Origin: Abditibacterium sp.
GTDB lineage: Bacteria > Armatimonadota > Abditibacteriia > Abditibacteriales > Abditibacteriaceae
NCBI GenBank assembly: GCA_965199495.1
Contig: CBDASK010000003.1
Location: forward strand, 2,368,001 to 2,432,000
DNA: 64,000 nucleotides
Direction of reading: 5' to 3'
Shown piece after piece: positions 333-64,000 of the stretch. A program made the position numbers and the translations under genes. The notes beneath the pieces were generated by a model. The model worked only from the letters and a program-made list of their open reading frames with translations. It searched no databases and was not told where the DNA came from. Positions within the stretch are counted from its first letter, which is position 1. Each line of letters starts with the position of its first letter.

Positions 333-1028
333 ATGCAAACTCACACTCTAACGGAAGCGCCGATTTCGGAGGTTCCAATACGGGGAAAGGTCATCAGGGT
401 TTTCATCGCAGATGATCATGTTTTGGTGCGCGAGGGATTGCGGCTTATCATTGAGGCACAGTCCGATATGGAAGTTGTGGGCGAGGCCAGCGACGGGCAG
501 GAGGCTTGGACGCGCATTCGAGAATTGCGCCCCGATGTGGCGATGATTGACGTTTCGATGCCCTATCTCAACGGTGCCCAGACGACCGAGCGCGTGCGTT
601 TCAATTGCCCCGAAGTCAAAGTTTTAGCGGTTTCGGCCTATGGTGACGAAGCCCATATTCGCCAATTACTGGCGTCGGGCGCGGCGGGTTACGTGCTCAA
701 AAAAGCGGCTTCGCAAGAACTCGCCAACGCGATTCGCGTGGTCGCGGGCGGCGGCGTGCATCTCGATCCGCAAATCGCCGGGCAAGTCGTGGGCGGCTTC
801 GTCAATCAATGCGGAACTGAAAGCGACGGCGGCCTGACCGTGCGCGAAGTCGAAGTCGTGATGCTCGTCGCTTATGGTCACACCAACAAGGAAATCGCCG
901 CCAAGCTGCATTTATCGGTAAAAACGGTCGAGGGCCACAAAACGCGCACCAACGAGAAATTGGGCATCAAAACCCGCGCCGATGTCGTGCGCTACGCCCT
1001 GCGCCGTGGCTGGTTGCGCGATGAGTAA
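333..1028 (+). CDS. NarL/LuxR-family DNA-binding response regulator
   Basis: REC domain (IADDH...DVSMP...GYVLK) plus LuxR HTH (LTVREVEV...NKEIA...LSVKTVE); start taken at ATG 333. Confidence 0.93.
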   Translation: MQTHTLTEAPISEVPIRGKVIRVFIADDHVLVREGLRLIIEAQSDMEVVGEASDGQEAWTRIRELRPDVAMIDVSMPYLNGAQTTERVRFNCPEVKVLAVSAYGDEAHIRQLLASGAAGYVLKKAASQELANAIRVVAGGGVHLDPQIAGQVVGGFVNQCGTESDGGLTVREVEVVMLVAYGHTNKEIAAKLHLSVKTVEGHKTRTNEKLGIKTRADVVRYALRRGWLRDE

Positions 1029-1058
1029 AAGTTCGTGTCCCTACGGGAAAACGAAAAT

Positions 1059-1442
1059 TTAATTATTCAACGGATTACTCGCGAAAGCCCATTCATCGGC
1101 CATTTCGCCTTCGCGCAGATGCGTTTCGACGATTGCCTCGCACGCTTGCGGCGTGACGCGGCCATACCAAACGCCTTCGGGGTAAACGATCATCAGTGGC
1201 CCGTTCTGACAAAATCTCAAGCATTCGACTTCGGTGACGTAAACGTTGATGCTATCGTCTTTGAGCTTTTTGCACGCTTTGTTCAGCGTTTTCATCGTGG
1301 CTTTGGCCTCATCTTTGTCTTTGCAACAGCCCGCTTGCGTGCAAATCAAAACGTGGCGCGCGTAACCGCCAGTTTTGCTTTCAGCGCCGATGCCGCGCGA
1401 AATGGCTTTCTTTTCCAGTTTTACACGTTGTTCCGAATTCAT
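1059..1442 (-). CDS. Thioredoxin-like [2Fe-2S] ferredoxin
   Basis: HVLIC...CC...ECLRFCQNGP...VYPEGVWY motif; ATG overlaps the ROK stop (ATGA at 1439-1442). Confidence 0.85.
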   Translation of the reverse strand: MNSEQRVKLEKKAISRGIGAESKTGGYARHVLICTQAGCCKDKDEAKATMKTLNKACKKLKDDSINVYVTEVECLRFCQNGPLMIVYPEGVWYGRVTPQACEAIVETHLREGEMADEWAFASNPLNN

Positions 1443-2386
1443 TTGGTGTGCCGTTCGCGCGCCCATTGCGCGGCGCCGATAGTTCCAGCGTCGTTGCCCA
1501 ACGCGGCGGGTTTAATCTGATTCACGTCGAAGGTAAAACGCGACGTACGCGATGCTACGGCGTTGCGAAGCGGCTCGAATAACGGTTCGCCGACTTGAGC
1601 CACGCCGCCTGCGATGACAACGCGCGAAACGTCGGCGGTGAACACGACATTCACGATGCCGACGGCTAAATAACTCGCGGTTTCCATCCACACTTTGCGC
1701 GCCAAATTGTCGCCGCGCGCGGCGGCGCGGGCGATATGAAGCGGCGCGAGTTGCGCCAAATCGGGGCAAATCTCCCAAATCAGCGAGGCTTGCCCGGTCG
1801 TCAAAGCGCGCATCGCGCGCCACACGATGGCGTCGCGTCCACACACGCTTTCGAGCGTGCCGACGTTGCCGCCGCTACCGCGCTTGTCGTCAATATCAAC
1901 CGTGATGTGCCCGACTTCGGCGCCGCGCTCGCTGGCGCCTAATCGCAGTTCGCCGTCGAGAATTAAACCCGATCCGATGCCGGTGCCCAACGTTAAAACT
2001 AAAATGTCGGCGGCGCCCCGACCGGCGCCAAATCGCGCTTCGCCCAACGCGGCGGCGTTGGCGTCGTTGAGCGCATGAACCGGCAAACCAATTTTTTCGC
2101 TCAGAATCGGCCCGACCGGCAAATCGCTCCAGCCGCTCAAATTGGGCGCATAAACGCAAATTCCGTCGGCGTGCCGAATGTGTCCGGGCACGCCAATGCC
2201 GACTGCCTCAACTTTCGCGGCAAATTCTTCGATAACCGCGCGTGCCGTGGCTGCAATGCGGCCCAGTAAAATTTCGGGCGCATCGCTCTGGCGCGTCTCG
2301 ATTTGCATTGCGTGCGATAACGCGCCGTTTTCGTTTAGTAAGCCGAACGCGCAGGTCGTGCCGCCGAGGTCAATTCCCAGAAACAT
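1439..2386 (-). CDS. ROK-family sugar kinase (glucokinase-like)
   Basis: GIDLGGT, NDANAAALGE, LGTGIGSG and AEVGH motifs; start MFLGIDLGG. Confidence 0.92.
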   Translation of the reverse strand: MFLGIDLGGTTCAFGLLNENGALSHAMQIETRQSDAPEILLGRIAATARAVIEEFAAKVEAVGIGVPGHIRHADGICVYAPNLSGWSDLPVGPILSEKIGLPVHALNDANAAALGEARFGAGRGAADILVLTLGTGIGSGLILDGELRLGASERGAEVGHITVDIDDKRGSGGNVGTLESVCGRDAIVWRAMRALTTGQASLIWEICPDLAQLAPLHIARAAARGDNLARKVWMETASYLAVGIVNVVFTADVSRVVIAGGVAQVGEPLFEPLRNAVASRTSRFTFDVNQIKPAALGNDAGTIGAAQWARERHTK

Positions 2387-2422
2387 AGGTTTAGAAGTAA
2401 AACCGAATTTGATAGCAAACGC

Positions 2423-2663: not shown

Positions 2664-2675
2664 CAGGTTGCGGAA

Positions 2676-3024: not shown

Positions 3025-3133
3025 TGCCATTGTAGAGACACCGATTTATCGTGTCTAAAAGGTTCAAGCTCCTGCAAATCTTGCGGGTTCATTTATCTTT
3101 TAGACACGATAAATCGGTGTCTCTACAATGGCA
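3025..3133. repeat. GTAG-type REP doublet (REPIN-like)
   Basis: 37-bp inverted arms with core GTAGAGACACCGATTTATCGTGTCT. Confidence 0.88.
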
Positions 3134-3757: not shown

Positions 3758-3955
3758 GCTATTTTCTCCTCTTGGCGTTGCAGGAAAATTTATCGGCGAA
3801 ATTTGATTTCGCCGACGGTGCAACGGGCAAGGCTTACGAGAAAAAGGATAACAAATTTTGTTTTCACTTACAACAGAAAAAACAAAATTTATTTTCCTTT
3901 TCTCGAATTTATTTTTTGCGAGTTCCATTCATCCCGGCGACGTGGCTGCTAATGG

Positions 3956-4849: not shown

Positions 4850-5884
4850 ATGTCCACCACTTTTAATCTGGCCATCATCGGCGTTGGCATCGGGCGCCAA
4901 CATTTGCGCGGCGCGCTGGGCGTGCCGGGCGTGCATATCGCGGCGCTGTGCGATTTGGATGTCGCGCGCGCGGGCGCGATGGCCGAAGAGTTCGAGTTGC
5001 AGGGCACGCGCGTCGTCGCCGATTATCGCGAGCTGCTCGAAATGCCCGATTTGGACGCGGTTTCGGTGTGCGTGCCCAATTCGCTGCACGCTTCGATTAC
5101 GGTCGCATGTTTGAGCGCCGGATTGCACGTCTTGTGCGAAAAACCGTTGGCGACTAATGCCGCCGACGCGCAACAAATCGTGGACGCCGCGCGCGACAAC
5201 AATCGCGCGTGTATGGTCGGCCAACTTTTGCGCTTTCGCGACGATGTGCGCGAACTCAAAAAGCGCGCCGGAGAAATCGGCCAACCGTATTACGCGCGCG
5301 CCGTGGCTCGTCGCGCGCACGGCATTCCCAAATGGGGCAGTTGGTTCACCCAAAAAGAGATGTCGGGCGGCGGGCCTCTGATTGACACCGGCGTTCACAT
5401 CATTGATTTGGCGTGGTGGCTCGCCAGAAGTCCGCGCCCAGTGAGTGCATCAGCCACGGCGTATGGCGAGTTGGGCGCGCGCAAAATCGGTCTGGGCATG
5501 GGCGGCATCGGCGACGCTAACGGGCGCTTCGATGTCGAAGATTTGGCGGCGGGCCACATCCGTTTCGAGAATAATTTTTCGATTCACTTCGAGTCGTCGT
5601 GGGCACTTTACGCCGACAAAGACGCGCGTTCGTGCCACGTTCACGGCACCGAAGGCGCGCTGCTGTGGGACGACGACGCCCGCGTTATCACGTCCGATGG
5701 TTCGGTTGAAGCGATTCACGTCGAGCCGGGCGACGCGTGGCAAAGGGAAATCGCGTATTTCGTGAGTTGTATTCAAAAAGGCATCGCGCCCCAACCGGAC
5801 GCAACGGCGGGCCTGACGATGATGAAAATGTTGGACGCGTTGTATCAGAGCGCGCGCGAAGGGCGCGAAGTGGAAATTGGTTGA
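4850..5884 (+). CDS. Gfo/Idh/MocA-family oxidoreductase
   Basis: AIIGVG.G Rossmann start, HVLCEKP, GGGPLIDTGVH. Confidence 0.93.
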   Translation: MSTTFNLAIIGVGIGRQHLRGALGVPGVHIAALCDLDVARAGAMAEEFELQGTRVVADYRELLEMPDLDAVSVCVPNSLHASITVACLSAGLHVLCEKPLATNAADAQQIVDAARDNNRACMVGQLLRFRDDVRELKKRAGEIGQPYYARAVARRAHGIPKWGSWFTQKEMSGGGPLIDTGVHIIDLAWWLARSPRPVSASATAYGELGARKIGLGMGGIGDANGRFDVEDLAAGHIRFENNFSIHFESSWALYADKDARSCHVHGTEGALLWDDDARVITSDGSVEAIHVEPGDAWQREIAYFVSCIQKGIAPQPDATAGLTMMKMLDALYQSAREGREVEIG

Positions 5885-6094: not shown

Positions 6095-6880
6095 ATGTTT
6101 TTCGACTCCCATTGCCATCTCACCGACGACCGATTATTCCCGCAACTCGCCGATGTTTTATCACGCGCCCACAGTAGCCACGTCGAGGCGATGCTAAGTA
6201 TTAGCTCCGATTTAGATGACACCGCGCGCATTTTAGAACTCTGCCAACCCAATCGAATCTGGGCCAGCGCGGGCGTTCATCCGGCGTCGGCGTTGCAATG
6301 GAACGATGACGATTCAACCCAAAAACTCACGCAATTCGCGCGCGACGAACGCGTATTGGCGATTGGCGAAATTGGTTTGGATTATCTTTACGACGACGCG
6401 CATCCCGACTATCCGGGCGCCACGCGCGCGCGTCAATCCGAAGTTTTTGAGGCGCAATTGCAAATCGCGTCCGACAACAATTTGCCGATTATCATTCACA
6501 ATCGCGAGGCCGACGAAGATTTGCTGGCGATTGTCGGCGCGTGGAAAGACCATTTAAACGGCGGCGTTTTTCATTGTTTCGGCAGCTCGCCCGAAGTCGC
6601 GCGGCGCGTTTTAGATTTGGGGTTTCATCTGGGTTTCACCGGCATCGTTTCGTTCAAAAACGCGCGCCAAACCCACGACGTGGCTGCTCTGTGCCCATTG
6701 GACAAAATGCTCATCGAAACCGATGCGCCTTATCTCGCGCCCGTCCCGATGCGCGGCAAAACCAATGAGCCATCGTTCGTGCCGTTCGTCGCGGCGAAAA
6801 TCGCCGAGATCAAAGGTTTGTCGGTCGAAGAAATCGGCGCGATGACTACAGCGAACGCGCGACGATTGTTTGGAATTTAG
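6095..6880 (+). CDS. tatD: TatD-family DNase
   Basis: DSHCHL, GVHP, AIGEIGLDY, HNRE, HCF and ETDAPY motifs. Confidence 0.95.
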   Translation: MFFDSHCHLTDDRLFPQLADVLSRAHSSHVEAMLSISSDLDDTARILELCQPNRIWASAGVHPASALQWNDDDSTQKLTQFARDERVLAIGEIGLDYLYDDAHPDYPGATRARQSEVFEAQLQIASDNNLPIIIHNREADEDLLAIVGAWKDHLNGGVFHCFGSSPEVARRVLDLGFHLGFTGIVSFKNARQTHDVAALCPLDKMLIETDAPYLAPVPMRGKTNEPSFVPFVAAKIAEIKGLSVEEIGAMTTANARRLFGI

Positions 6881-7476: not shown

Positions 7477-10400
7477 ACACGCTTTTCGAGGCGCTCACTC
7501 GCGCCAGCGCGTTCGGTTTGGCGGCGCTTTTCGTCGCGTTAATCGCGCAATTTACGCTCAGCAAGCGCGCTCCGGCAGCGTGGCGCGCGTGGATTTGGCG
7601 CATAGCGTTAGTGCAAAGCGCGTTCGCGTTGTTGCCGCTCGCGCCGATTCGCTGGGAAATCTTGGCGCCGCCGACCATCGCGCCAATAGCAGCCACGCCG
7701 AGCGCGCGGGCAAAGCCGAACGAGATTTTCGACACAGATAATTTGAATTCGTCGCCGCTCGAAATGCCCGACGCGCCGCCACTCGAAAACGCGTTATCAC
7801 TCGAAAACGCGTTATCACTCGAAAACGCGTCATCACTCGAAAACGCGTCACCCGTTCCAATCGCGAAAGCTCCGCAAAAGCCGTTCGATTGGCGCGCGTT
7901 GTTGCTGGCGATTTACGCGTTTGGCGTCGCGTTTCAATGCGCGCAATTAGCGCGCGGCAAACGCCAACTGCGCCGCACATTGCGCGATTGCAAACTCAAC
8001 GAAAACGCGGATTTAATAGCGCGTTTAAACGAACTGACGGCGCGAAGCCATTTAAAAATCGCGCCGCAACTGTTAATCAGCGAAGGCGGTTCGCCATTTT
8101 TAACCGGCGTTTTTCGCCCGCGAATCATATTGCCTCTCGCTTTATGCGAAGCCGAAAACGCACAACTCGACGCGGTTTTGGCGCACGAACTGGCGCACTG
8201 TAAACGGCGCGATTTAATCTGGCTCGGCGCGACGTGGCTGCTACAAACGCTGCTGTGGTTTCATCCGCTTTCGTGGGCCGCGCGCCGCTTTCACGGCCTC
8301 GAAACCGAATGCGCGTGCGACGAACTGGCGCTGCAACTCGCGCCCATCGCGCCCCAATCTTATGGCGCGCTACTTTTAAATTCCATGAACAATTCCAAAT
8401 TTTCTTCCCCGCTCGCGGCGGGCACCTGCGATACCTTATTCGCGCTCAAAACGCGCTTGCTGCGTTTGAACAACGCGCCCAAATCGCCGCGTAAAATGGA
8501 GAAATTCGCGTTTGTCATTGCGCTTGTGCTTTCGTGCGGCGCGGTTGTGCCGCTCAAGTTGGTGGCGCGCGCCCAAAATGTGCCGCGCGTGACGCCGCCG
8601 AAGCCGAAAGTTGCGGGTAACGTAATTGTGCAAGGCGTAATTAAATCGAATCAAACGGGCAAACCGCTCGCGGGCGTGCCGGTTATTTTGATTCCCATGT
8701 CGCCGAGCAATTTTGCTCCCAAAAAGGTATTTGCCTTTGATGAAAAGGGGAAACCTCGCCTCGTTGCAGTTCTGGACGTATTTCCCGGTTTGCGAAATAA
8801 GCAGGAAATCATAACCGACTTGCGCGGTTACTTCCGCTTCAATGCAGTTGGTCGCGATTACCTGATTCTCATCGACGGTAAAATTTCGGTGTTGCCATCA
8901 AAACACACGGAATTTTGGGCGCGACAGGCGGTGATAACAGAGATGAAAACAGTGCTAAGATGGAACACCGAATTTAAATTGGACGAAGCGTCACAAAGAT
9001 CCAAACAGTTTGAATTGGACGAAGCGTCACAGAGCTTCAAACAATACGTGTTAAAGACGCTCGCGGGCAATGCGGTTGTTCAGGGCGTCATCGTATCGAA
9101 GCAGACCAAGAAACCGCTCGCGGGCGCACCTGTGGCCTTACTTACGAGAAGCGTAGATCCAATTCCGGAAAGTAGCAAAGGGTTGAAGGTAGCGACTTAT
9201 CAAAAGACGCAAACTGACGCGCGCGGCTACTTTCGCTTCAATGCTTTGGGCGGCGAACAAATGTTGTTGGCTGGAGACTCGGTTGAGGTTGATTTAAACC
9301 AACCTCAACCGACGATCAAAGCTCAGACTGCCAGTAGCTTCAAATTGAAAGACAGACAGATGAAGTATTTCAATCTCGCGTTAGACGCACTCCCCAAACG
9401 CGGCGTGGCCGATGTCGCAGTTCCGCCGTCTGCCATCAAAAAACCGGGCAGCGCGGTTGTGCAAGGCGTGGTGACATCGAAGCAAACCCGGAAACCGTTG
9501 GCGGGAGTGAGTGTGACTTTAACTACGACAAAGTTGGAGACAAATCGCAATGGTCAAACGCGCTCGGAAACACTGAACACTCAGAAAACCCGAACCGACG
9601 CACGCGGTTATTTTCGCTTCAACGCGGCGGAAGGTCTCTATCGCTTGCTCGTCAACGGTAGGATTACTATTGTGATTTTTCGCGACGCAAAGGGGCACCC
9701 CCGAAAATCTAACCGTCCTCTTCAAATTGAATTGGACGAAGATCGCTCCGATGCAGCCACGCCGCCGAAGACCACAGGCACTGGCAACGCGGTTGTGCAG
9801 GGCATCGTTTTGGCGCCGCGAACGAAGCAGCCGTTGGCGGGCGCGCCCATGATTTTGAAAAACGGCGGAAAATCGCAAAATTCTGTGACCGATGCGCGCG
9901 GTTACTTTCGTTTTAACACCGGCGGCGGTAAACAGGTTTTGAGTGTTTCGACGAGAGAACCGAACGCTCCCGCAGACAGCAAACTCTTTATCACGTTCGA
10001 GTTGGAAAACGGCCAAAAGCGAAATCTTAGACTTGATTGGGACGAAATTAGTGATCTCAGCAAAGCCGTCATCCCAACAAACTTGCCGAGGGACAAAGGA
10101 ACGGGCAACGCGGTTATTCAAGGCATTATTACCTCGAAGCAGAGCAAAAAACCGCTTGTGGGCGTGACGATGATTTTGGTTGTGGGGCAGGTCAAGTTGT
10201 GGAGTAAAGACGAGTTATTGCCCGCAAAGGCGAAATACCAAGTAACCGCAACCGACGCGCTCGGTTATTTTCGTTTCAACTCGTCAGTTGGCGAGAAAAA
10301 TTTGCTCATTAATGGCAAAATTTCGCCTGACGCTAACAAAGTTGATAGATTTTTGGCGCCGCAAATCGCTGGTTTTTCATTGAAAAGCGCGGAACGACGC

Positions 10401-11881: not shown

Positions 11882-12664
11882 CTAATCGGTTTGTCCATCG
11901 TCTTGCCCGACATCCGTTTGCAACTGCGCCGCCTCGCGCGAGTTTTCGACTTTCTGAGACAACTTGACCGCGAGCGGCGTAATCGCGAAGAACACCACAA
12001 CTGCTGCCGCCGTGGCTGCCCAGCGCGCGGGCGTGGCTCTAAATTCGGGCAGGCTGTTGGGCATGATATTACCCAGAATAAAGCCGCCGAGCAAACCGCC
12101 CATGTGACCGAAATTATCAATGTTGCCAAACGTGCCGCTAAAACCAATGGCGATGTTGATGCCGATGAACATCAGCATCTGCGAACCGAAGGTATCCCAG
12201 TAAGAGCGGCGACGCAGCGAAATCGCCAGAAACGCGCCCGCCAACCCGAAAATCGCGCCGCTCGCGCCGACCGAATTGCCGCCGCTCCACACCAAACTCA
12301 TCAGGCTCGAAGTCCAGCCCGTCGCCAGATAAAGCAGCAGAAATTTGGGCGCGCCATAAATGCGCTCGATGGCGGGGCCGATTTGATACAGCACATACAT
12401 ATTGAACGCGATATGAATGAAGCCGCCGTGCAAAAACGTGCAACTGATGAGGCGCCACCATTCGCCCTGCCGCACCAAATCGGAATACATCGAGCCGAAC
12501 TTAATCAGCACATCGCTATCGGTATCGCCAAAGCCACCGCGTCCACCGGTGATGGTATACATCAGCAGACAAATCGCCATCATCGCGTAAGTCGCGTAGG
12601 GAATATATTCGCTTTGCTCGCGATATTGCCGCCCGACGTTGACGGGTTGGGGAGATTGATTCAT
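11882..12664 (-). CDS. Rhomboid intramembrane serine protease
   Basis: GEWWRL, FLHGG..HIAFN, GASGAIFG, GHMGG. Confidence 0.93.
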   Translation of the reverse strand: MNQSPQPVNVGRQYREQSEYIPYATYAMMAICLLMYTITGGRGGFGDTDSDVLIKFGSMYSDLVRQGEWWRLISCTFLHGGFIHIAFNMYVLYQIGPAIERIYGAPKFLLLYLATGWTSSLMSLVWSGGNSVGASGAIFGLAGAFLAISLRRRSYWDTFGSQMLMFIGINIAIGFSGTFGNIDNFGHMGGLLGGFILGNIMPNSLPEFRATPARWAATAAAVVVFFAITPLAVKLSQKVENSREAAQLQTDVGQDDGQTD

Positions 12665-33985: not shown

Positions 33986-34027
33986 AAAACAAAAGAGCCA
34001 CGGCAAACGCCGTGGCTCTTTTGTTTT
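33986..34027 (+). terminator. Intrinsic terminator built from an inverted pair of the iterated 9-mer
   Basis: AAAACAAAAG-AGCCACGGC-AAAC-GCCGTGGCT-CTTTTGTTTT. Confidence 0.82.
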
Positions 34028-51952: not shown

Positions 51953-54079
51953 TTACTTCAGTTCGACGATGACTTTTTGCAAATCGCCCTGAAACGCGTT
52001 GTCGCGGGTGTAGTTGCCCACTTGTCCGGCTTCGTCGCGCCCCACTTGCAGGCCATCGGTTGGCATCATCAACAGCGGTTTGGGCGCCTGTCCCTGCGCG
52101 ACGGTTTTTCCGGCGACGCGCAGCGTCAGGGCGCCGGTTTTGGAAAGCGTCGCGCCGACTTGAATCGGCCCCGCCGGGAGCGCGTCGGGCGCCGTCAAGG
52201 TCGTCAGCTTGCCGTCGCTTCGCAGCGCGACTGCCAATTTGCCTGCGCTCACGTAAAGCGCGAGTCCGTCTTGCGAGCCGCCCTGCGCGACCAAAACGCC
52301 GTCACCGCTTCGCGCGCCCAGTTGCGCGCTGATTTCAACGTCGCGCTCCGCGATGCGCGGCGCTCGCTCGCGCGGCAAAGTGGCGCCGGGCCGCAAATCG
52401 AACGAGGCGGCGTGGCTGCCCGCGTCGTTGGCCGATTCCCGCGTGACATCGCCCCAATCGGCGCGGCGCGGCCCCGTCCATTGGTCAACATGGGACGACT
52501 TGGCCCACGCGTCCCACTGCGCGCCCATTTTGGCGACCAACTTCGGTTGCTGTTTCACCAAATCGTGCTGCTCGGTGCGGTCGGCCTCCACGTCATAAAG
52601 TTCCCACGGATCGAGATATTTGGAAACCAGCTTCCACTTTCCATTGCGCACGCCGCGATTGCCTTCGTGTTCCCAGAAAATCGGTTTGGAGCGCGCCTGT
52701 TTTTTGCCCGCGAAATCGGGAATTAGACTTACGCCGTCCATCGGATAAATTTGGTGGCCGTTATAAGTCGTCGGATATTTGGCGCCGGTCACGGCCAAAA
52801 CCGTCGGCATAATGTCCACAAAATGGCCCGGCTGTTTTTCCAATTGCCCGTTGCGCGACTTCGGAATGCCATCGGGCCAGTGCGCGATAAGCGGCGTCGA
52901 AATGCCGCCTTCGTGGATGAAATGTTTGTAGCGCCGAAACGGCGTATTGCTGAGCGTCGCCCAGTCCATGCCCTCGAAAACATTCGATTGCGGCCCGCCC
53001 AATGGGTCGCCCTGCGCGATGCCGCGCGGCCCACTTTCGGCGTTGCCGCCGTTGTCGGACATGAACAGAATCAGCGTGTTATCGTAAACGCCGCGTTTTT
53101 TCAGGCCGTCCACCAACATTCCGACGCTCTTGTCCATGTCGCTCACCATCGCCGCGTAAACCGACATAATGCCGTCGAACCGTTCTTTTTCGGCGTCATC
53201 GAGCGTGTCCCACGCGGGCGTCGCGGGCGGGCGCGCCGAAAGCGGCCACTTCGGATCAATCAGACCCATCTGAATTTGGCGCTGATAACGCGCCGCGCGC
53301 AATTTGTCCCAGCCGACCAGATATTTGCCCTTAAATTTGGCGATGTCCGCTTGCGGCGCCATCAACGGAAAGTGCGGCGCGCAGAAAGGCAGATACAAAA
53401 AGAACGGTTTTTTCGCTTGCTGAGCCTCGTCAATGAACCGCAAACCGAAATCTTTGAAAAGGGTAGTCGAATACCAATTTTCGCCTAATTTTGGCGAATC
53501 GAGCGGCAACTCTTCGCCGTTGAGCGCCAGAGGATTATTCGGCTCTGGTTTTTGGTCGGGGAAATAAATGGCGCCGTGCATGGAACTCAAGCTGCGGTCG
53601 AAGCCGCGTTTCCACGGCGGCGTGCCGTGCGTCTGGCCCATGTGCCATTTGCCACTCATCGCGGTGAAATAACCGGCGGGTTGCAGCGCCTCGCCAATGG
53701 TCACGGCGCGGTCGCTCAAGCGCCCGGTTGTGCCCTCGGAATCTTTGATAACCAGTGGCTCCAAATATCCCAGACCCGCGCGATGCGGATAAAGCCCGGT
53801 GATGAGCGAAGCGCGCGAAGGGCTGCACCGCGCGGTATTGTAAAACTGCGTAAAGCGCAGTCCGGTCGCCGCCAGATTGTCGAGATTGGGCGTGGGAATT
53901 TCGCTGCCATAACAACCGATGTCCGACCAACCCATATCGTCCACCAAAATCACCACAACATTGGGCCGCGCGGCGGGTGCAGCCACGGCGGGTTGCGCGG
54001 CGATGGCAACCGCGCCCAAAGCGGTGACGCCCGTCGCGAGAGTGGCCGCGCGCTGAGTGAGGTTCAAACGTTTTTTCAT
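51953..54079 (-). CDS. Arylsulfatase with C-terminal LamG/ConA-like module
   Basis: DDMGWSD, CSPSRASLITG, GKWHMG, APHFPL, FWEHEGN. Confidence 0.92.
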   Translation of the reverse strand: MKKRLNLTQRAATLATGVTALGAVAIAAQPAVAAPAARPNVVVILVDDMGWSDIGCYGSEIPTPNLDNLAATGLRFTQFYNTARCSPSRASLITGLYPHRAGLGYLEPLVIKDSEGTTGRLSDRAVTIGEALQPAGYFTAMSGKWHMGQTHGTPPWKRGFDRSLSSMHGAIYFPDQKPEPNNPLALNGEELPLDSPKLGENWYSTTLFKDFGLRFIDEAQQAKKPFFLYLPFCAPHFPLMAPQADIAKFKGKYLVGWDKLRAARYQRQIQMGLIDPKWPLSARPPATPAWDTLDDAEKERFDGIMSVYAAMVSDMDKSVGMLVDGLKKRGVYDNTLILFMSDNGGNAESGPRGIAQGDPLGGPQSNVFEGMDWATLSNTPFRRYKHFIHEGGISTPLIAHWPDGIPKSRNGQLEKQPGHFVDIMPTVLAVTGAKYPTTYNGHQIYPMDGVSLIPDFAGKKQARSKPIFWEHEGNRGVRNGKWKLVSKYLDPWELYDVEADRTEQHDLVKQQPKLVAKMGAQWDAWAKSSHVDQWTGPRRADWGDVTRESANDAGSHAASFDLRPGATLPRERAPRIAERDVEISAQLGARSGDGVLVAQGGSQDGLALYVSAGKLAVALRSDGKLTTLTAPDALPAGPIQVGATLSKTGALTLRVAGKTVAQGQAPKPLLMMPTDGLQVGRDEAGQVGNYTRDNAFQGDLQKVIVELK

Positions 54080-54323: not shown

Positions 54324-56126
54324 TTACTGCGCCACAATTTTTACGTTTTCGATTACACCTGCGAGCGGATGCGGCGCCGTATAATCGCCGACCGCGAATT
54401 GCGTGTCTTGCCCGATGCTGAGTCCTTCGGCGGGCTGTTTCTTAATCGGCCCCGCCGCCTGCGCGCGCGCCACGATTGTTCCGTTAATTGCCAACGTCAT
54501 CGCGCCGTCTTTGCCCAAATGCGCTTCAATCGAGAACTTCCTCGTCGCCGCCTCGGTCGCCGTGGCTGTTACGAGCGTCCGGCTTTCGCGGACGCCGAAA
54601 ACCGGTTTGCCCCCCGCCAAATACAACGCGTAACCGATTTGATTGCCGCCCTGCGCCACAATCACGCCGTCTTTGGCGTCAGTCGTCACGTCAGCCGTGA
54701 TGGTCAGGTCTTTGCCCGCGATTTCCGGCGAGGCCACCGGATCGGGATCGGTCAGCAAATGCGATTTGCCGTAGACGATGCCCTTGTCGCCTTCGGCAGT
54801 CATCCACGATTCTAATTCTTGGTGCAAATCGCTTTTAACTTTTGCATATTGCGGGTCTGCGGCCAAATTGTGCAGTTCGTTGGGGTCGGCTTGAATATCG
54901 TAAAGCTCTTCGGCGGGCCGCTCGTGGTAGCGATGCACGAGCGCGGCGGCGAGCGGATCGGTCTTGGCGGCTTCGAGCCACGTCGGCCAATACGGATCGG
55001 TTTGGGTGTCGGCCTTGAGGTCTATATGCGTGCGAAACGCGAATTCGGGGTGCAGGTTGAGAATGTATTTCCAGCGATTGGTACGCACGCTGCGCATCGG
55101 GTAAACGTTGATGTCGCCGTCGCCGCTGTGCGTGGCGAAAATCATATCGCGTCCCTTGCTTTTAGGGTCGAGCAAAATCGGTAGCATCGAGCGCCCGTCC
55201 AATCCGGGCGGCGGATTGCCACCGGCGATTTGAACTAAAGTCGGCAAAATATCCACCCAATCCACCATTGAATCGGTGCGCTGGCCGGGTTTGATAACAC
55301 CCGGCCACGTCGCGATCATCGGCACGCGAATGCCTTCGTCGTAGAGATTCCACTTGCTAAACGGCCACTGCGCACCCTGGTCGCTCGAATGCAAAAAGAA
55401 CATATTGGAGCCAAATTTCGCGCGCGACGCATCGTAAACTTCGCCCAATTCGGTGTCGAATCGTTTAATCGCGGCGTAATAACGCGTGCGCCACTGGCGC
55501 GTGGCTGGCGTATCGAGCAACGTTGGCGGTAACTTAACTTTGGCGGCATCGAAGCCTTCGCCGGTTTCGGGCCACGGGACGTGCGGCCAGTTGGTGCCCA
55601 CAAAAAACGCCAACGGCTTGGTGCTTTTGCGGTTTTTCAGCCATTCGATAGCGGCGGGAATCGCTTCGTCGTCGTGATAGCCGGTGTGTTCCGCGACATC
55701 GAAACCGTATTTTTTGGTGAAGTTGTAATGGCCGACCTTGCCAAACGCCACGACTTCGTAGCCCTGCTCGTGCAGGTAGGCGGGCATCAGCTTGATGTCG
55801 GAATGGGGCGAAGTTTGGTTTGGTTCGGCGCCGTTGCGCGCGGGCATCAGGCCGCTCAGCATGGCGCCGCGACTGGGCGCGCACGTCGGCGAAGCCGCAA
55901 ACGCGCGATTGAACGTCAAACCCGCCGCGCTGATGCGCTGCATATTGGGCGTCTGCACATCGGTCGCGCCATAAACCGTCGAATCGCGCAGGCTGTGATC
56001 GTCGGAAATGAAAAAGACGATGTTGGGTTTGACCGGAAGTTTGGGTGCCGGAGCGGATTGCGCGCAGGAAGCGGCTGTCGCTGTCGCACTGAGAGCAAAT
56101 AGGCCGCGAAAAAGTGTTTTGTTCAT
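54324..56126 (-). CDS. Sulfatase (sulfamidase-like) with C-terminal LamG/ConA-like module
   Basis: ISDDH, CAPSRGAMLSG, GKVGH, PHVPW; lipobox-like AASC. Confidence 0.88.
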   Translation of the reverse strand: MNKTLFRGLFALSATATAASCAQSAPAPKLPVKPNIVFFISDDHSLRDSTVYGATDVQTPNMQRISAAGLTFNRAFAASPTCAPSRGAMLSGLMPARNGAEPNQTSPHSDIKLMPAYLHEQGYEVVAFGKVGHYNFTKKYGFDVAEHTGYHDDEAIPAAIEWLKNRKSTKPLAFFVGTNWPHVPWPETGEGFDAAKVKLPPTLLDTPATRQWRTRYYAAIKRFDTELGEVYDASRAKFGSNMFFLHSSDQGAQWPFSKWNLYDEGIRVPMIATWPGVIKPGQRTDSMVDWVDILPTLVQIAGGNPPPGLDGRSMLPILLDPKSKGRDMIFATHSGDGDINVYPMRSVRTNRWKYILNLHPEFAFRTHIDLKADTQTDPYWPTWLEAAKTDPLAAALVHRYHERPAEELYDIQADPNELHNLAADPQYAKVKSDLHQELESWMTAEGDKGIVYGKSHLLTDPDPVASPEIAGKDLTITADVTTDAKDGVIVAQGGNQIGYALYLAGGKPVFGVRESRTLVTATATEAATRKFSIEAHLGKDGAMTLAINGTIVARAQAAGPIKKQPAEGLSIGQDTQFAVGDYTAPHPLAGVIENVKIVAQ

Positions 56127-56348: not shown

Positions 56349-56364
56349 ACCTTCAATTTCCCCT

Positions 56365-58368
56365 TCACTCCGCCACAATTTTCACGTTCTCGACTGTTCC
56401 CGCCAACCGATTGGGCGCCCGATAATCGCCGACGGCGCCGCGCGTGTCCTGGCCGATACTGAGTTCGTCTTTGGGCTGAACTTTGATGAGACTCGGCGCC
56501 TTCGCGCGCGCCACAATTTTTCCGCCCACGCTCAAAATCATCGCGCCGTCTTTTTGCAATTGCGCCTCAACTGAAAACTTGCCGCCCAGCGCGTCGGGCG
56601 CCGTGGTTGTTGTCAGCACGCCGTTTTCGCGCACGCTGAAAATCAATTTGCCCTCCGCCAAATGCAACGCGTAACCGGCCTGTGCGCCGCCCTGCGCCAG
56701 AATCACGCCGCTTTGCGCAGTCGTCGTTACGTCGCAACGAATGTCCAGCGTTTTACCGGCGATTTGCGGCGTCGCCACCGATGCAGCCACGTCGCCCGCG
56801 TCGGGCGCTTCTTCATCTTCGGCGGCGTTGGCCGGGCCGTTTGGCATCGGGAAAACATGAACGCGCGCGGCCCATTTGTCCCAACTCGCCGCCATCTGCG
56901 TTGCGCGCGCGGGTTGCGCGCCGATCAAGTCGTGCATTTCGGAACGATCTTTCGACAAATCATACAATTCCCATTTCGGCGGCTGATTGCGGTTGCCCGC
57001 CGAAACCAACTTCCAATTGCCCTCGATAACCGCGCGATTGCCTTCGTGTTCCCAGAACAAAGGCGCGCGATTTAACGGTTTGTTCTCGAACGCGGGCACC
57101 AAACTTGTGCCTTCCATCGGCGGAATTTTATGTCCGTGGTAAGTTGTCGGATAAGTCGCGCCCGCGACATCGGCGAAGGTCGCCATGAAATCCATCACGT
57201 TGCCGATTTGCCCGTTCCACCCTCCGCCGCCTTGGATGCGCGCGGGCCAATGCGCGATCATCGGCGTGGCGATGCCGCCTTCGTGCGTCCAATGTTTATA
57301 CAACCGAAACGGCGTATTCGACAAATTCGCCCACGGCACGCCATAACTCGCGCCTTCGTGACAGGCGCCGTTATCCGACAGAAAAATCAGTAATGTATTG
57401 TTGTATTGACCGCTTTTTTTCAACGCGCTCACGATTTTGCCGACGCCCTGATCCATCGAATCCACCATCGCGGCGTAGGTCTCCATTTTTCGCAGCAGTT
57501 CGGCTTTGCCCGGCGTCGTCGCCCAATCGCGTTCGTGCGGCGACAAATCCCACGAAGGTTCGAGCAAACCCATTTTTATCATGCGCTCGTAACGCTGTTG
57601 TCTCAAAACGTCCCAACCCGCGTCGAATTTTCCTTTGTATTTGGCGAGGTCGGCGGGTTTGGCCTGGAGCGGCCAATGCGGCGCGTTATAAGAAACGTAG
57701 AAGAAAAACGGCTTGTTTTTCGGCTGCGCCTCGATAGTTTTCGCCGTGTAATCGCTAAAAGCGTCGGTCGTATAATAATCGTCGCCCGGCTTGGGCAAAC
57801 GCTGGTTGCCCTTGGTCAAAGTCGCCGGATGAAAATAGTTATCCGCGCCCGCGATAATGCCATAATAATCGTCGAAACCGCGTTGCAAAGGCCAGTTCGC
57901 TTTGCCTGCCTCAGTTTTGGGATTATTATGCTCGAACGTCGTTAAGTGCCATTTGCCGGTCGCATAAGTCGAGTAACCGGCGCCTTTGAGCATTTCGGCG
58001 AGCGTGACGCATTGATTGTTCAATTCGCCCTGATACGCGGGCAAACCCAAATCGTAATTCATGCCGCCGATGCCCGCCTGATGCGGATACAAACCGGTCA
58101 TCAGCGCGGCGCGCGTCGGGCAACAGCGCGCCTCGTTGGTGAAGCGCGTGAATCGCACGCCTTCGCGCGCGATTTGGTCAATGTTGGGCGTCCCAATTTC
58201 GCCGCCATAACAGCCGATGTCGGAAAATCCCATATCGTCGGCCATAATCAACACGATATTGGGACGCGGCGCGCGCGGCGCGACCGGCGCGTTTTGGGCC
58301 GTCGCGCAACTGGAAGTGAGCGCCAAACCTGAGAATGCGAGACTTTTGCAAAGCAATTGTTTTATCAT
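56365..58368 (-). CDS. Arylsulfatase with C-terminal LamG/ConA-like module
   Basis: DDMGFSD, CCPTRAALMTG, GKWHL, APHWPL. Confidence 0.92.
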   Translation of the reverse strand: MIKQLLCKSLAFSGLALTSSCATAQNAPVAPRAPRPNIVLIMADDMGFSDIGCYGGEIGTPNIDQIAREGVRFTRFTNEARCCPTRAALMTGLYPHQAGIGGMNYDLGLPAYQGELNNQCVTLAEMLKGAGYSTYATGKWHLTTFEHNNPKTEAGKANWPLQRGFDDYYGIIAGADNYFHPATLTKGNQRLPKPGDDYYTTDAFSDYTAKTIEAQPKNKPFFFYVSYNAPHWPLQAKPADLAKYKGKFDAGWDVLRQQRYERMIKMGLLEPSWDLSPHERDWATTPGKAELLRKMETYAAMVDSMDQGVGKIVSALKKSGQYNNTLLIFLSDNGACHEGASYGVPWANLSNTPFRLYKHWTHEGGIATPMIAHWPARIQGGGGWNGQIGNVMDFMATFADVAGATYPTTYHGHKIPPMEGTSLVPAFENKPLNRAPLFWEHEGNRAVIEGNWKLVSAGNRNQPPKWELYDLSKDRSEMHDLIGAQPARATQMAASWDKWAARVHVFPMPNGPANAAEDEEAPDAGDVAASVATPQIAGKTLDIRCDVTTTAQSGVILAQGGAQAGYALHLAEGKLIFSVRENGVLTTTTAPDALGGKFSVEAQLQKDGAMILSVGGKIVARAKAPSLIKVQPKDELSIGQDTRGAVGDYRAPNRLAGTVENVKIVAE

Positions 58369-58393
58369 CTGTGAGCGGTTGTGTTGACTTTAA

Positions 58394-58443: not shown

Positions 58444-58448
58444 CAAAC

Positions 58449-60398
58449 TTAATCCAAAGGCGAGTCCAAGTCAATTGCCACAGATTCAATTTTTCCTTTG
58501 AAGGGAAACGGTGCGTCGTATGGCCCAACGGCGCCATCGGAATCGCGGCCAACGCTCAATCCATCGAGCGGTTGCGAATCTATCAATTTGGGCGCTTGCC
58601 CCTGCGCCACGACCTTGCCATCCACGCTGAGCGTGAGCGTCTGGTCGGCGCTCAGACGCGCGACCACGCTGTGCGCGCCTTTCACCGCTTGCGGCGAAAC
58701 CACTTGCGACGCTTTGCTGTCAACGCGCACCAAAAAGTGCAATTTGCTTTCTTTGTCGAGGAACAGCGTGTAACCTACAGCCGCGCCGCCCTGCGCCACA
58801 ATCACGCCGCCGTTCGCCGCATCTGTAGCATCGAATTTGGCCGTAACGCGAATGCCGTGTTTGGCCAAATTAGGCGCCTGAAGGCGACCCAGAGTTTGGC
58901 CCGCTTTCAAATCGAAGTGAACCGTGTCACTAAATTTCGGCTGCGAAGGCGCGGGCACGGGCGGCAAAGTTTTGTTCCAGTCCATCACCGCTTTGGTGAG
59001 GCGCGCCACCAACTGCGGTTGCGCCGCCGCCAAGTTATTGGTTTCGCCGACGTCTTTGCTCAAATCATAAAGCTGAGGCTGCGAGCCGTCGTCCTGCACC
59101 AACAATTTCATATTGCCTTCGCGCACGGCGAAACCGGGCAACGGCTCTGCGGGCGAACCGGGACGATCCGGCGGGCGCTTCCAAAACAGCGGTTGCGTGC
59201 GGCCATTTTGCGTCTTGCCCAGCAAAGTCGCGCTCAAATTCGAGCCGTCGCTTTTGGGCACATTTTTCACGCCTGCGATGTTCAAAATCGAGGGCAGAAA
59301 ATCCGCGCCCGAAACAATGGCGCTGTCGTTGACCGTGCCCGCTTTGGCGGCGGGAATTAGTCCCGGCCCCCACACGATGAGCGGTTCGCGAATGCCGCCT
59401 TCGTAAAGTTGGCCTTTGCTGCCGCGAAACGGTTTGGCCAGCCCCGCGCCCTCTTCTGGCCCGTTATCACTGGCAAAAATTATTAACGTGTTATCGCGCA
59501 ATTTTGGGTCGTTGCGAACTTTGTCAAAGAGCGGCCCCAGTTCTTTGTCCATGTTGGTCACCACGCCGCGATACAACTCGCGTTTGCCGCCGTCGCCGCG
59601 CAGGGTTTGCGGCGGGTCGTAGGGCGAATGCACGTCGTCAGGCCACAGGTTGATGTAAAACGGTTTATCGTTTTTTTCGGCCTGATCGATGAAACCGAGC
59701 GCGCCGTTGACGAACGCGCTCGTCACATCGGCGCGCGGCACCCACGTCACTTTGCCGCGCCCCAGTTGCGCGCTGGCCACGCCCAATCCCAATTTTTCTT
59801 CGGGCTTGCCGTTTTGCGCGCTCATCACGGGCAAAACGCGGTCGCCCAAACCCTCAAACTGAGTCAGCGATTGGGCAAATCCATATTGCGTCGGCAACGG
59901 CGCTTCACCGACATCGCGCCCGCCGCCCATGTGCCATTTGCCGAAATGGCCGCTCGCATAACCGGCGTTCGTCAAAGAACGCGCGACGGTTGGCGCGCTC
60001 AGATCGAGCCACTGCGCCATGCCGCGCCGGTTGTTGAGTTCGCGATTATCAATGTAAGACGTGATGTTCCAGCGCGCCGGATATTGTCCCGTCGTAAACG
60101 CGGTGCGCGAGGGCGAACAAATCGGCGAATTCACGTAAAACTGCGTGAAACGAATGCCTTCGGCAGCCAGACGATCCACGTTGGGCGTTTTCACGCCTTG
60201 GCCGCCGTAAAGCGGCAAATCGGCGTAGCCCATATCGTCGGCCAGCACGAAAATGATGTTGGGTTTTGAAGGAGTTTTCGCCATCGGTGCAGGTTGAGGT
60301 TGCGGCGCAGCGGCTGGCTGTGGAGCCGAACGCGCGTTACAACCCGACACCGCCGTGGCTACTACGGCAAGTAGGCCACTAAAAAATACTTTATTCAT
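58449..60398 (-). CDS. Sulfatase (GalNAc-6-sulfatase-like) lipoprotein with C-terminal LamG/ConA-like module
   Basis: DDMGY, CSPSRTAFTTG, GKWHMG, SDNGPE; lipobox VSGC. Confidence 0.9.
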   Translation of the reverse strand: MNKVFFSGLLAVVATAVSGCNARSAPQPAAAPQPQPAPMAKTPSKPNIIFVLADDMGYADLPLYGGQGVKTPNVDRLAAEGIRFTQFYVNSPICSPSRTAFTTGQYPARWNITSYIDNRELNNRRGMAQWLDLSAPTVARSLTNAGYASGHFGKWHMGGGRDVGEAPLPTQYGFAQSLTQFEGLGDRVLPVMSAQNGKPEEKLGLGVASAQLGRGKVTWVPRADVTSAFVNGALGFIDQAEKNDKPFYINLWPDDVHSPYDPPQTLRGDGGKRELYRGVVTNMDKELGPLFDKVRNDPKLRDNTLIIFASDNGPEEGAGLAKPFRGSKGQLYEGGIREPLIVWGPGLIPAAKAGTVNDSAIVSGADFLPSILNIAGVKNVPKSDGSNLSATLLGKTQNGRTQPLFWKRPPDRPGSPAEPLPGFAVREGNMKLLVQDDGSQPQLYDLSKDVGETNNLAAAQPQLVARLTKAVMDWNKTLPPVPAPSQPKFSDTVHFDLKAGQTLGRLQAPNLAKHGIRVTAKFDATDAANGGVIVAQGGAAVGYTLFLDKESKLHFLVRVDSKASQVVSPQAVKGAHSVVARLSADQTLTLSVDGKVVAQGQAPKLIDSQPLDGLSVGRDSDGAVGPYDAPFPFKGKIESVAIDLDSPLD

Positions 60399-62636: not shown

Positions 62637-62679
62637 GATAAATCGGAAACATCGCTCAAAGGGAATGGCCCTGAGATTC

Positions 62680-62775
62680 CGTAGAGACGACGATTTATCG
62701 CGTCTAAAATGTTGGGCTTGCGTTTGTGTGGGAGCAAGTTCAACATTTTAGACGCGATAAATCGTCGTCTCTACG
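62680..62775. repeat. GTAG-type REP doublet (variant)
   Basis: CGTAGAGACGACGATTTATCGCGTCTAAAATGTTG and its inverse. Confidence 0.85.
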
Positions 62776-62819
62776 AAAACATCGAGAATCTCAACTCTGA
62801 TTAACGATTTTTGCAAATT

Positions 62820-64000
62820 TTACCATTTGATTTCGACCATCTGGGCATCAACCGAGTTGGGAAAACGCAAACGCAAAACCTGACTTTTGCCCACAACATC
62901 GGCGTCCATTTGACCCGCCCCCAGAGCTTTACCGCCGACCGTCACCGATTTCGGCATCGCGGGCACAATGGCGCGCACCACGGCGTTGGTATCAGCCACG
63001 CCGCTCGACATAAACGAAAGCGAATTTACGCTCGCCTTTTCATTATCCACGCGACACGCCGCCGCCACGACTTGCGGCGTTTGCGGCGTCGCGTCCAAAT
63101 TGAACAGGTAAGCCCGTCGCCGTGGCTGCAACTCGATGCGCGTTACCAAGGGCAAATTGGCGTCGAACAAATCAATGAAATGTCCGTTCACGGTTTGCGC
63201 GGGCGCGCCTGCGATGGGGTCGTCCAAACCCGACGCGACGACGAACGGGCCGCGCGACAAAACTAAGGCGTTCGATTCGCGCCACGGCAAACCGATGCTT
63301 TCCGATGCGCTTTTGACGAGGGCGCGCAACGTTTCGCCGCCGTTGTCATCGTGAGACAGCGCCGCCGGAGACAGCGCCGCGCGCGTGACCAGTCCTTTGC
63401 CGACTTTTTGCGTGCCAACGAAATCTACCCCCAAGCCCAACTGTTCCATCAAATGCTGGCGCGGCGTCGCGTAATTGTTGCCTTTCTCATTCCACCATTC
63501 GCGCACCGCGTTATACGGATCATCGTCGTTGTCAACGACGACGAGGGCGCCGCCCGCGCGCACCCATTTGGCGAGCGCCGCGTGAACGGCGGGCGATGGC
63601 GGCTTCTGGCCTTCGTAAGTCAAAACCAAGACTTTATAAGGGCTGAGAAAATCGTCCCGGACAATCGAACTTTCCAATTGCACCGGCACGACCGGAACGC
63701 CGCGCATAAGCAGCGGCATTGCCAATCCGTAAAACGAACCCAAACGCCCGTCGGACGGCGTGGGGTCGCCGCGCTCGAACATCAACGAATCGGAAACCAA
63801 AACGCCCACGCCCTGCGTGCCGCTGGCTTCCCATTTCACGTTGGGTTGCTTCATCTGTCCCAGCGAATTAATCACACTTTGCAGTTCGGTTTCGTAGGCC
63901 GGAGGAATCGTCGTTTTCTCGACCTCTCCCGGCGGGCGCAGCGACGCCTCTTTGACCGGATATTTGCCGTTCCAGATGCGTTCGGGCCACGGCATAATTT
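62820..64000 (-). CDS. C-terminal part of a hypothetical protein (possible carbohydrate-active enzyme); 5' end lies outside the window
   Basis: Open frame to the window edge; GATase-like segment YKVLVL...AKWVRAGGALVVV. Confidence 0.6.
   Translation of the reverse strand, partial: IMPWPERIWNGKYPVKEASLRPPGEVEKTTIPPAYETELQSVINSLGQMKQPNVKWEASGTQGVGVLVSDSLMFERGDPTPSDGRLGSFYGLAMPLLMRGVPVVPVQLESSIVRDDFLSPYKVLVLTYEGQKPPSPAVHAALAKWVRAGGALVVVDNDDDPYNAVREWWNEKGNNYATPRQHLMEQLGLGVDFVGTQKVGKGLVTRAALSPAALSHDDNGGETLRALVKSASESIGLPWRESNALVLSRGPFVVASGLDDPIAGAPAQTVNGHFIDLFDANLPLVTRIELQPRRRAYLFNLDATPQTPQVVAAACRVDNEKASVNSLSFMSSGVADTNAVVRAIVPAMPKSVTVGGKALGAGQMDADVVGKSQVLRLRFPNSVDAQMVEIKW

Follow-up and report, generated by a model that had tools for sequence, protein, structure and literature searches.

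A short non-palindromic DNA word, CGVCGTGGCT, often followed by GC(T), is hyperabundant in the genome of an Abditibacterium species and is written at the DNA level, mostly by the rewriting of codons. The window analysed here is a stretch of 64,000 nt (G000:C3:2368001-2432000) from the chromosome of the source assembly G000 (4.81 Mb, 55.7% G+C, three contigs: chromosome C3 of 4.72 Mb and the small contigs C1 of 24.7 kb and C2 of 64.6 kb), in which the 9-mer form of the word, GCCGTGGCT, occurs 27 times. The word is abundant, symmetric between the strands, evenly spaced, conserved, absent from mobile DNA and restricted to one clade, a member of which holds a dialect of it. As these sequence-level properties are those described for the DNA uptake sequences (DUS) of the Neisseriaceae and the uptake signal sequences (USS) of the Pasteurellaceae, the chances appear about even that CGVCGTGGCT(GC) is a lineage-specific self word of this kind, linked to transformation and kept by molecular drive, and uptake would be the best single reading of the data.

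Abundance, codon rewriting and spacing

The 9-mer copies in the window, 14 on the forward and 13 on the reverse strand, all lie where an earlier note made from the sequence had placed them, and the approximately 40 further core sites it mentioned correspond to the 42 counted here, the 7-mer core CGTGGCT/AGCCACG having 69 sites. Its expectation of about one chance copy in 64 kb agrees with 100 dinucleotide-preserving shuffles of the window (mean 0.73, maximum 4); the G+C content, which it put at about 58%, is roughly right but slightly lower (0.526-0.593 per 4-kb bin). The enrichment extends beyond the window to the whole chromosome, on which the 9-mer is found 1504 times (772 forward, 732 reverse; 52-78 expected by Markov models of order 1-3), and neither C1 nor C2 has a copy. 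The top 12-mer, CGCCGTGGCTGC, reaches 690 copies where the same models predict 2-4. In a substitution scan of this 12-mer, any single change at positions 1, 2 or 4-10 leaves 0-26 copies; only position 3 is degenerate within positions 1-10 (C 690, G 357, A 276, T 27), and positions 11-12 are soft. This degeneracy undoes two suggestions of the earlier note, a CCRYGG motif and a GCCGT shared with the Neisseria DUS: CCGTGG is missing from 1425 of the 2799 chromosomal 10-mer sites, and the first C of GCCGT is the degenerate position. The 10-mer CGVCGTGGCT has a density of 0.593/kb and a mean spacing of 1684 nt, 46 copies being in the window, and differs from its own reverse complement. In all 24 bins of 200 kb the 9-mer is about as frequent on the forward as on the reverse strand, without replichore polarity, and the balance also holds on both sides of the weak GC-skew extremes, which supports the comparison made in the earlier note with dispersed, strand-unbiased uptake sequences.

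Gene calls were made with the author's own crude caller based on open reading frames (ORFs; 3702 genes, 86% coding). By these calls, 126 of the 1504 chromosomal 9-mers are intergenic or at gene edges, 635 are read as GCC-GTG-GCT (A-V-A), 512 lie antisense as xxA-GCC-ACG-GCx (A-T-A), and the other four phases hold 39-86 each, so that all six phases are used but two of them hold 1147 (76%). The window behaves alike, with 10 copies in A-V-A, 10 in A-T-A, four in the remaining phases (one each) and three intergenic. The use of all six phases and the six peptide readings given in the earlier note are correct, but 20 of the 27 copies fall in two phases, and frame-independence is contradicted by the chromosomal counts. 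Measured against the synonymous-codon and dinucleotide shuffles that had been set beforehand as the refuting test, the enrichment survives: ten within-gene synonymous-codon shuffles leave 70-100 of the 1380 copies observed in coding DNA (93-95% removed), and five codon-order shuffles leave 53-71. Of 1570 A-V-A tripeptides, 636 are spelled GCCGTGGCT, yet GCT makes up only 10.5% of alanine codons, and for the compatible tripeptides taken together ([AGD]VA and AT[APS]) the share spelled as the word is 2030/5949 (34%) on the chromosome. The rewriting of one third of compatible tripeptides by way of a rare alanine codon is an unusually strong imprint, and it is seen in the proteome as an approximately 2-fold excess of tripeptides over their reversed order (DVA 813 vs AVD 374; ATP 866 vs PTA 408; VAA 1821 vs AAV 844; AAT 1429 vs TAA 781). 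The many copies that the earlier note placed in signal peptides have no strong genome-wide counterpart, as the first 40 codons hold 311 sites vs 281 expected, only slightly more than chance.

Copies are also more evenly spaced than chance use of the sites open to them would give. When the real in-frame sites are compared with 500 random subsets of compatible tripeptide sites, gaps of 50-400 nt make up 0.084 of the total (null 0.140 +/- 0.007, lowest subset 0.120) and gaps of 800-3200 nt make up 0.560 (null 0.446 +/- 0.011, highest subset 0.476), neither observed share being reached by any of the 500. Neighbouring copies thus 'interfere' with each other, which argues against a purely site-by-site mutational bias. 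Inverted pairs at very short distance form a class of their own: adjacent core sites no more than 80 nt apart are inverted in 204 cases and direct in 48 (binomial p = 4e-24). The inverted pair at 33996/34008 is a predicted intrinsic terminator, the one clear case in the window: the copies form the arms of a hairpin with a 19-bp stem, a 4-nt loop and bordering A and T runs, which lies between convergent genes and was flagged as terminator-like (dG -32.3 kcal/mol, z -8.5).

The word in acquired DNA and in relatives

The depletion in horizontally acquired DNA that the earlier note had proposed as a check is seen. The copies of CGVCGTGGCT number none on C1 and two on C2, vs about 53 expected, and word spelling among compatible tripeptides, which as a measure is independent of base composition, amounts to 0/17 and 2/50, respectively. 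In three chromosomal islands it is 10/91, 18/125 and 2/39 (5-14%), compared with the 34% of the chromosome. In a PHROGs scan of 61 ORFs from the small contigs, C2 fits a phage or phage-plasmid, with matches to a terminase, head protease, major head protein, tape measure and tail proteins and with RecT and ParB additionally encoded; C1, with an anti-restriction protein and a serine invertase, looks plasmid-like. The longest word-free gaps (10-24 kb) are grouped at 415-536 kb, 1119-1256 kb and 4229-4268 kb, and blocks alignable to relatives have a word density of 0.60-0.72/kb. In practice, the word distinguishes native from acquired DNA in these genomes. A word-free gap also coincides with G000:C3:2766475-2774998, outside the window, where 131 copies of a 23-nt repeat with a period of 64-67 nt probably constitute a large array of clustered regularly interspaced short palindromic repeats (CRISPR).

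Among 12 same-genus genomes the 9-mer is enriched only in G011 (1297 copies) and G004 (369), the remaining ten having 1-81 copies, below their own reversed-word control. Across 27 family genomes, the 8-mer core CGTGGCTG is approximately 10-fold enriched only in G000 (3091), G011 (2676) and G004 (3503) and stays near controls (131-529) in the other 24, which bears out the lineage-specificity proposed earlier. Relatives were sampled for k-mers at 200-400 kb each (G011 400 kb of 4.6 Mb, G004 200 kb of 5.0 Mb, G009 200 kb of 3.6 Mb), and such kin are not statistically independent. The G011 sample has the same word as G000, while the G004 sample has a 16-nt dialect, GGACGTGGCTGGTGTC, at about 0.4/kb, which shares the core CGTGGCTG; 12-mers of the G000 type are near background in the G004 sample, and the reverse is also true. 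K-mer analysis of the G009 sample found no hyperabundant word.

Between G000 and G011 (214 kb aligned, 84.8% identity), 102 of 154 G000 sites are intact in G011, and identity at third codon positions is 0.83-0.91 inside the word compared with 0.69-0.76 in its flanks. Where the tripeptide is conserved, it is nucleotide-identical in 70/88 word-coded cases vs 50/126 coded otherwise (Fisher p = 6e-9), and the word is thus conserved beyond the codon level between these two genomes. Lineage-specific sites number 53 in G000 and 27 in G011; 16 of the former have at least four differing positions, and these could reflect replacement by recombination, with misalignment in variable regions as the alternative. 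Divergence around the sites is flat (0.84-0.87) to +/-600 nt in this comparison, without a local effect. Only 6/86 G000 sites are intact in the G004 alignment (125 kb, 79.6%) and 0/29 in that of word-free G009 (49 kb, 70.6%). In G009 the differences are concentrated at the two synonymous positions by which the word is made (identity 0.17 and 0.14), with GCCGTCGCC as one example of what stands at orthologous sites, indicating that the word was written over pre-existing A/G/D-V-A codons.

The dialect of G004 differs in its setting as well as its sequence. At 6 of 15 aligned dialect sites the G000 form is held at the same place with lineage-specific flanks, and single coding copies use the same two frames as in G000. 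Of the 94 dialect sites sampled (L081-L090), 59 are intergenic and 52 are in inverted pairs, of which 46 are among the intergenic ones; the spacing in the pairs is most often 33 nt (about 33-35 nt), their centres are AT-rich, and the intergenic consensus is longer, with GTAG just upstream. The doublets could be terminators, dimer-binding sites or elements resembling REPINs, the doublet form of repetitive extragenic palindromic (REP) sequences. The limitation of the word to three sister species, one with a clear dialect and a hairpin form, marks a young and changing system, and opens the origin and turnover of such words to comparative study, with a direct route to the reader protein.

A proposed transformation-linked self word and its rivals

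In the proposed mechanism, a component of the uptake or transformation route would bind double-stranded DNA containing the word, candidates being the type IV pilus operon with its four pilin-like genes, ComEA and ComEC. Conspecific fragments with the word would then be taken up and recombined more often, and alleles creating a copy would be over-transmitted, which is the molecular drive. Copies would build up to approximately one per recombination-sized tract wherever proteins tolerate them, DNA arriving by phage, plasmid or island would stay word-free, and drift in reader specificity would give rise to the G004 dialect. Competence genes, for which the earlier note had proposed a search, are present in G000, which encodes full-length ComEC, ComEA (SLBB and HHH_3 domains; C3:3,332,882-3,333,967) and DprA. 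Four pilin-like genes (C3:867,620-872,591) come after a PilB-PilT-PilC-PilD operon, and there is a PilM-to-secretin cluster besides several other secretins. Between G000 and G011, which have the word in common, a 618-aa pilin retains only 57% identity.

Like the words of the proteobacterial systems, the present one is conserved although its sites are permissive, and it occasionally forms terminator pairs. The DUS is likewise a non-palindromic 10-12-mer, found on both strands about once per 1-1.5 kb; it is described as rare in acquired DNA and highly conserved (PMC2397512), and its dialects as species-specific with a small common core (PMC3630211). Reading-frame bias and approximately 2-fold tripeptide enrichment were reported for both USS and DUS by Findlay and Redfield (PMC2817400), and the strong frame preferences and proteome imprint of the USS resemble those seen here. 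The USS also has a core of about 9-10 nt, and its weaker flanking consensus becomes more marked outside genes, as that of G004 does; its receptor was long unidentified, and a minor pilin has recently been predicted according to a preprint (10.1101/2025.06.16.659825). In other respects the word stands apart. The DUS has another sequence and belongs to another phylum, with ComP as its receptor, and the meningococcal DUS is given as only 34.5% within ORFs (PMC2817400), whereas the word favours coding DNA; unlike the USS, the word is G+C-rich, enriched in coding DNA and without AT-tract flanks. Inverted DUS pairs act as terminators, and this pairing and the intergenic over-representation of DUS and USS are lacking in G000, where such pairs are few, but present in G004.

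Several observations count against a role in uptake. All competence families searched are equally present in word-free G009 and G007, and two of the pilin-like genes have orthologues in most of the 27 family genomes, leaving their phyletic pattern without discriminating power. The ComP_DUS family (PF16732) had no match in five genomes, a search in which no control genome matched either, and no reader or receptor protein was found. The non-coding share of sites is low, at 222/2799 (7.9%) in 13.8% of the chromosome, unlike DUS and USS, and only 12 of these 222 intergenic G000 sites are in inverted pairs, so that the frequent terminator pairing brought up by the earlier note does not apply to G000, the window having a single such pair. 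All frame and coding counts rest on gene models from the crude caller. Even spacing and conservation would be equally expected from a chromosomal protein reading the word in cis, and conservation cannot separate drive from selection. Among the literature matches listed, natural competence in this phylum is unreported.

A fuller version of the uptake reading, held somewhat more tentatively, is that the Abditibacteriota harbour a new sequence-specific uptake or self-recognition system whose reader would be unrelated to ComP and whose specificity would be shifting between sister species, from a 10-13-nt word in G000 and G011 to a 16-nt dialect in G004 that is also built into hundreds of intergenic hairpins. 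In that event, uptake-sequence-type drive would act generally in bacteria, shaping genomes and proteomes far outside two proteobacterial families, and the palindromic word of another genus described below would imply frequent origin and turnover of such systems. In the literature consulted, sequence-specific uptake words are treated as confined to these two families (10.1101/2025.10.24.684340; PMC3630211), and a 2025 preprint still presents uptake-enhancing sequences as a Pasteurellaceae and Neisseriaceae feature. Neither the word nor any such word in Abditibacteriota is described among the literature matches listed, which for Abditibacteri* are mostly community surveys. The only other intragenic hyperabundant word met in this literature is the cyanobacterial highly iterated palindrome HIP1, the word described here adding a third lineage, from a barely cultured phylum.

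HIP1 is also the model for the strongest rival, a chromosomal word that an abundant cytoplasmic DNA-binding or DNA-modifying protein reads in cis for nucleoid organization, recombination stimulation or self-marking, its copies being kept by selection on chromosome function. This is rather unlikely. HIP1 (GCGATCGC), whose function was long obscure, is hyperabundant in genes, conserved beyond codons and non-randomly spaced, and the conservation and over-even spacing of the present word match features that Xu et al. read as chromosome-structure selection (PMC5861425). Its preference for coding DNA also fits HIP1 better than DUS or USS. HIP-like words do exist in this family: G014, of another genus, has 2567 copies of the 12-bp palindrome GCAAGTACTTGC in 4.3 Mb, whereas the remaining 26 genomes of the family, one of them the congeneric G018, have 0-3, and from its sequence this looks like a HIP1-like system of independent origin. 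A related locus (L010:1-22667) has 34 copies of the 9-mer core AAGTACTTG in 22.7 kb. HIP1, however, is an 8-bp palindrome with cognate methylases, whereas the present word is asymmetric and 10-13 nt long, and neither a reader nor a C5 methyltransferase common to G000, G011 and G004 was identified, N6/N4 methyltransferases not having been surveyed across genomes. Since HIP1 is itself now being linked to transformation (10.1101/2024.09.10.611283; PMC13756078), this rival partly merges with the uptake reading.

The two C5 methylases of G000 are on acquired DNA. For the one used as a protein query, neither G011 nor G004 gave an orthologue, with identities of 42% at most. At C3:1917528-1918721, an insertion that splits thiC contains one C5 DNA methylase together with two unknown ORFs. 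The second C5 methylase, at C3:4273367-4275940, is interrupted by an intein with a LAGLIDADG domain; its neighbour is a D12 adenine methylase, and the surrounding island is prophage-like and free of the word.

The word could instead be a neutral by-product, without function, of sequence-biased repair or gene conversion, such as mismatch correction of the very short patch (VSP) type tied to a methyltransferase. Sites arising largely by synonymous point changes from pre-adapted tripeptides, the rarity of one-off variants and the word-free state to be expected of recently arrived mobile DNA would all suit such a process. It is nonetheless improbable, as a bias acting site by site should not make neighbours at 50-400 nt scarcer than the compatible sites would predict. 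Vsr is above cut-off only in G004, below threshold in G000 and absent in G011, and the lack of a common C5 methyltransferase applies here as well. CCRYGG is not conserved, as position 3 varies, and a recognition length of 10-16 nt exceeds, to our knowledge, that of known methylase sites.

Spread as a mobile REP/REPIN-type repeat by a REP-associated tyrosine (RAYT, Y1) transposase is very unlikely, and for G000 it already fails. The intergenic inverted doublets of G004, with their 33-nt modal spacing and GTAG head, are REP/REPIN-like, and Y1_Tnp genes are found in both G000 and G004 as well as in G011. Word-free G009, however, also has five Y1_Tnp matches, and Y1 flanks showed no REP-like word pattern at six places in G000 and near-background counts at eight in G004. 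In G000, 92% of sites are intragenic, in frame, single, non-palindromic and without conserved flanks or RAYT association, and the genome has a separate, typical REPIN-like family (153 copies on C3, 80% intergenic). This family consists of a head, GTAGAGACACCGA, followed by a palindrome, and forms 65 inverted pairs within 150 nt; its window sites are 3031-3125, 6909-7003 and 34084-34165, and it occurs sparsely in the samples of G004 and G011 too.

A polar word guiding RecBCD/AddAB (Chi) or FtsK (FtsK-orienting polar sequences, KOPS) is scarcely credible. The word is a non-palindromic 8-10-mer and, like Chi and KOPS or architecture-imparting sequences (AIMS), is short, asymmetric and over-represented chromosome-wide, and the G004 dialect contains GCTGGTG, which resembles E. 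coli Chi; these elements are polar with respect to replication, whereas the present word is balanced in all 24 bins and so fails the defining polarity test, and its codon rewriting at 34% of compatible sites is far above any known for Chi. A codon-usage or peptide artefact, for instance of signal-peptidase A-x-A sites, has next to no probability in spite of the 76% of 9-mers read as A-V-A or A-T-A, being ruled out by the synonymous and codon-order shuffles, the need for the rare codon GCT, the use of both orientations and the small N-terminal excess.

Copies and neighbouring features in the window

Table 1. Word copies and the predicted hairpin in the window, with codon context; L001 and L002 are loci of relatives.
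Feature	Position	Strand	Context
CGCCGTGGCT	1002..1011	+	coding, minor phase R-R-G-W
CGGCGTGGCT	1598..1607	-	coding, preferred sense frame G-V-A
9-mer GCCGTGGCT without 5' C	2244..2252	+	A-T-A on coding strand
CGACGTGGCT	3938..3947	+	intergenic by author's gene calls
CGCCGTGGCT	5299..5308	+	A-V-A frame
CGCCGTGGCT	5452..5461	-	antisense preferred frame A-T-A
CGACGTGGCT	6176..6185	-	antisense minor phase S-H-V
CGACGTGGCT	6676..6685	+	D-V-A frame
CGGCGTGGCT	7691..7700	-	antisense A-T-P frame
CGACGTGGCT	8230..8239	+	minor phase T-W-L
CGGCGTGGCT	9755..9764	-	antisense A-T-P frame
CGGCGTGGCT	10457..10466	-	antisense A-T-P frame
CGCCGTGGCT	12008..12017	+	antisense A-T-A frame
CGACGTGGCT	13617..13626	+	antisense minor phase S-H-V
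CGCCGTGGCT	14026..14035	-	A-V-A frame, FGGY kinase gene
CGGCGTGGCT	15913..15922	+	minor phase A-W-L
9-mer GCCGTGGCT without 5' C	16028..16036	+	minor phase P-W-L
CGCCGTGGCT	17233..17242	-	antisense A-T-A frame
CGGCGTGGCT	18591..18600	-	G-V-A frame
CGACGTGGCT	20604..20613	+	D-V-A frame
CGACGTGGCT	23265..23274	-	D-V-A frame
CGACGTGGCT	26331..26340	+	D-V-A frame; lost in L001
CGCCGTGGCT	27342..27351	-	antisense A-T-A frame; kept in L001
CGACGTGGCT	27896..27905	+	antisense minor phase; kept in L001
CGCCGTGGCT	29067..29076	-	gene edge or intergenic; kept in L001
CGGCGTGGCT	32262..32271	+	G-V-A frame; kept in L001
Intrinsic-terminator hairpin (predicted)	33986..34027	.	arms are the copies at 33996-34004 (-) and 34008-34017 (+); T runs on both sides
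9-mer, left hairpin arm	33996..34004	-	terminator hairpin (predicted)
CGCCGTGGCT, right hairpin arm	34008..34017	+	terminator hairpin (predicted)
CGCCGTGGCT	34291..34300	+	antisense A-T-A frame, C-terminal end of 1233-aa protein
CGGCGTGGCT	34396..34405	-	G-V-A frame
CGGCGTGGCT	36517..36526	-	G-V-A frame
CGCCGTGGCT	38992..39001	-	A-V-A frame; kept in L001
CGCCGTGGCT	39904..39913	+	antisense A-T-A frame; kept in L001, absent in L002
CGCCGTGGCT	40647..40656	-	valyl-tRNA synthetase gene, A-V-A frame; lost in L001, core kept in L002
CGGCGTGGCT	40790..40799	+	valyl-tRNA synthetase gene, antisense minor phase; kept in L001 and L002
CGCCGTGGCT	42195..42204	-	valyl-tRNA synthetase gene, A-V-A frame; one-off GCTGTGGCT in L001, GCCGTCGCC in L002
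CGCCGTGGCT	44058..44067	-	A-V-A frame, protein residue 15
9-mer without 5' C	45170..45178	+	A-V-A frame
CGCCGTGGCT	45389..45398	-	antisense minor phase S-H-G
CGCCGTGGCT	45598..45607	+	A-V-A frame
CGCCGTGGCT	46851..46860	-	A-V-A frame, Pup-ligase gene
CGCCGTGGCT	50140..50149	+	antisense A-T-A frame, sulfatase residue 14
CGGCGTGGCT	52408..52417	+	antisense minor phase
CGCCGTGGCT	53981..53990	-	A-V-A frame, sulfatase
CGCCGTGGCT	54558..54567	+	antisense A-T-A frame
CGACGTGGCT	54976..54985	-	minor phase T-W-L
CGACGTGGCT	56785..56794	-	D-V-A frame
CGCCGTGGCT	60351..60360	+	antisense A-T-A frame, sulfatase residue 13
CGGCGTGGCT	62994..63003	-	G-V-A frame
CGCCGTGGCT	63118..63127	+	antisense minor phase Q-P-R

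The copies in the window and their contexts are collected in Table 1. Among public sequencing runs, the stretch occurs in one organism-labelled run (share 0.96) and, with small shares, in five metagenome runs. Alignment of four public runs gave mostly short pieces with 5-15% other letters, and among the 40 of 1,921 differences listed none is inside a copy of the word.

Five sulfatase genes are clustered at 46785-60398, adjoining the Pup-ligase homologue, and elsewhere the window encodes a BlaR1-type M56 peptidase with carboxypeptidase-regulatory repeats, an ankyrin-repeat protein and a giant protein with Chlam_PMP repeats. The 8- and 9-mer tables of G000 are led by CG-rich alternating words, CGCGCGCGC (3093 copies) and its relatives.

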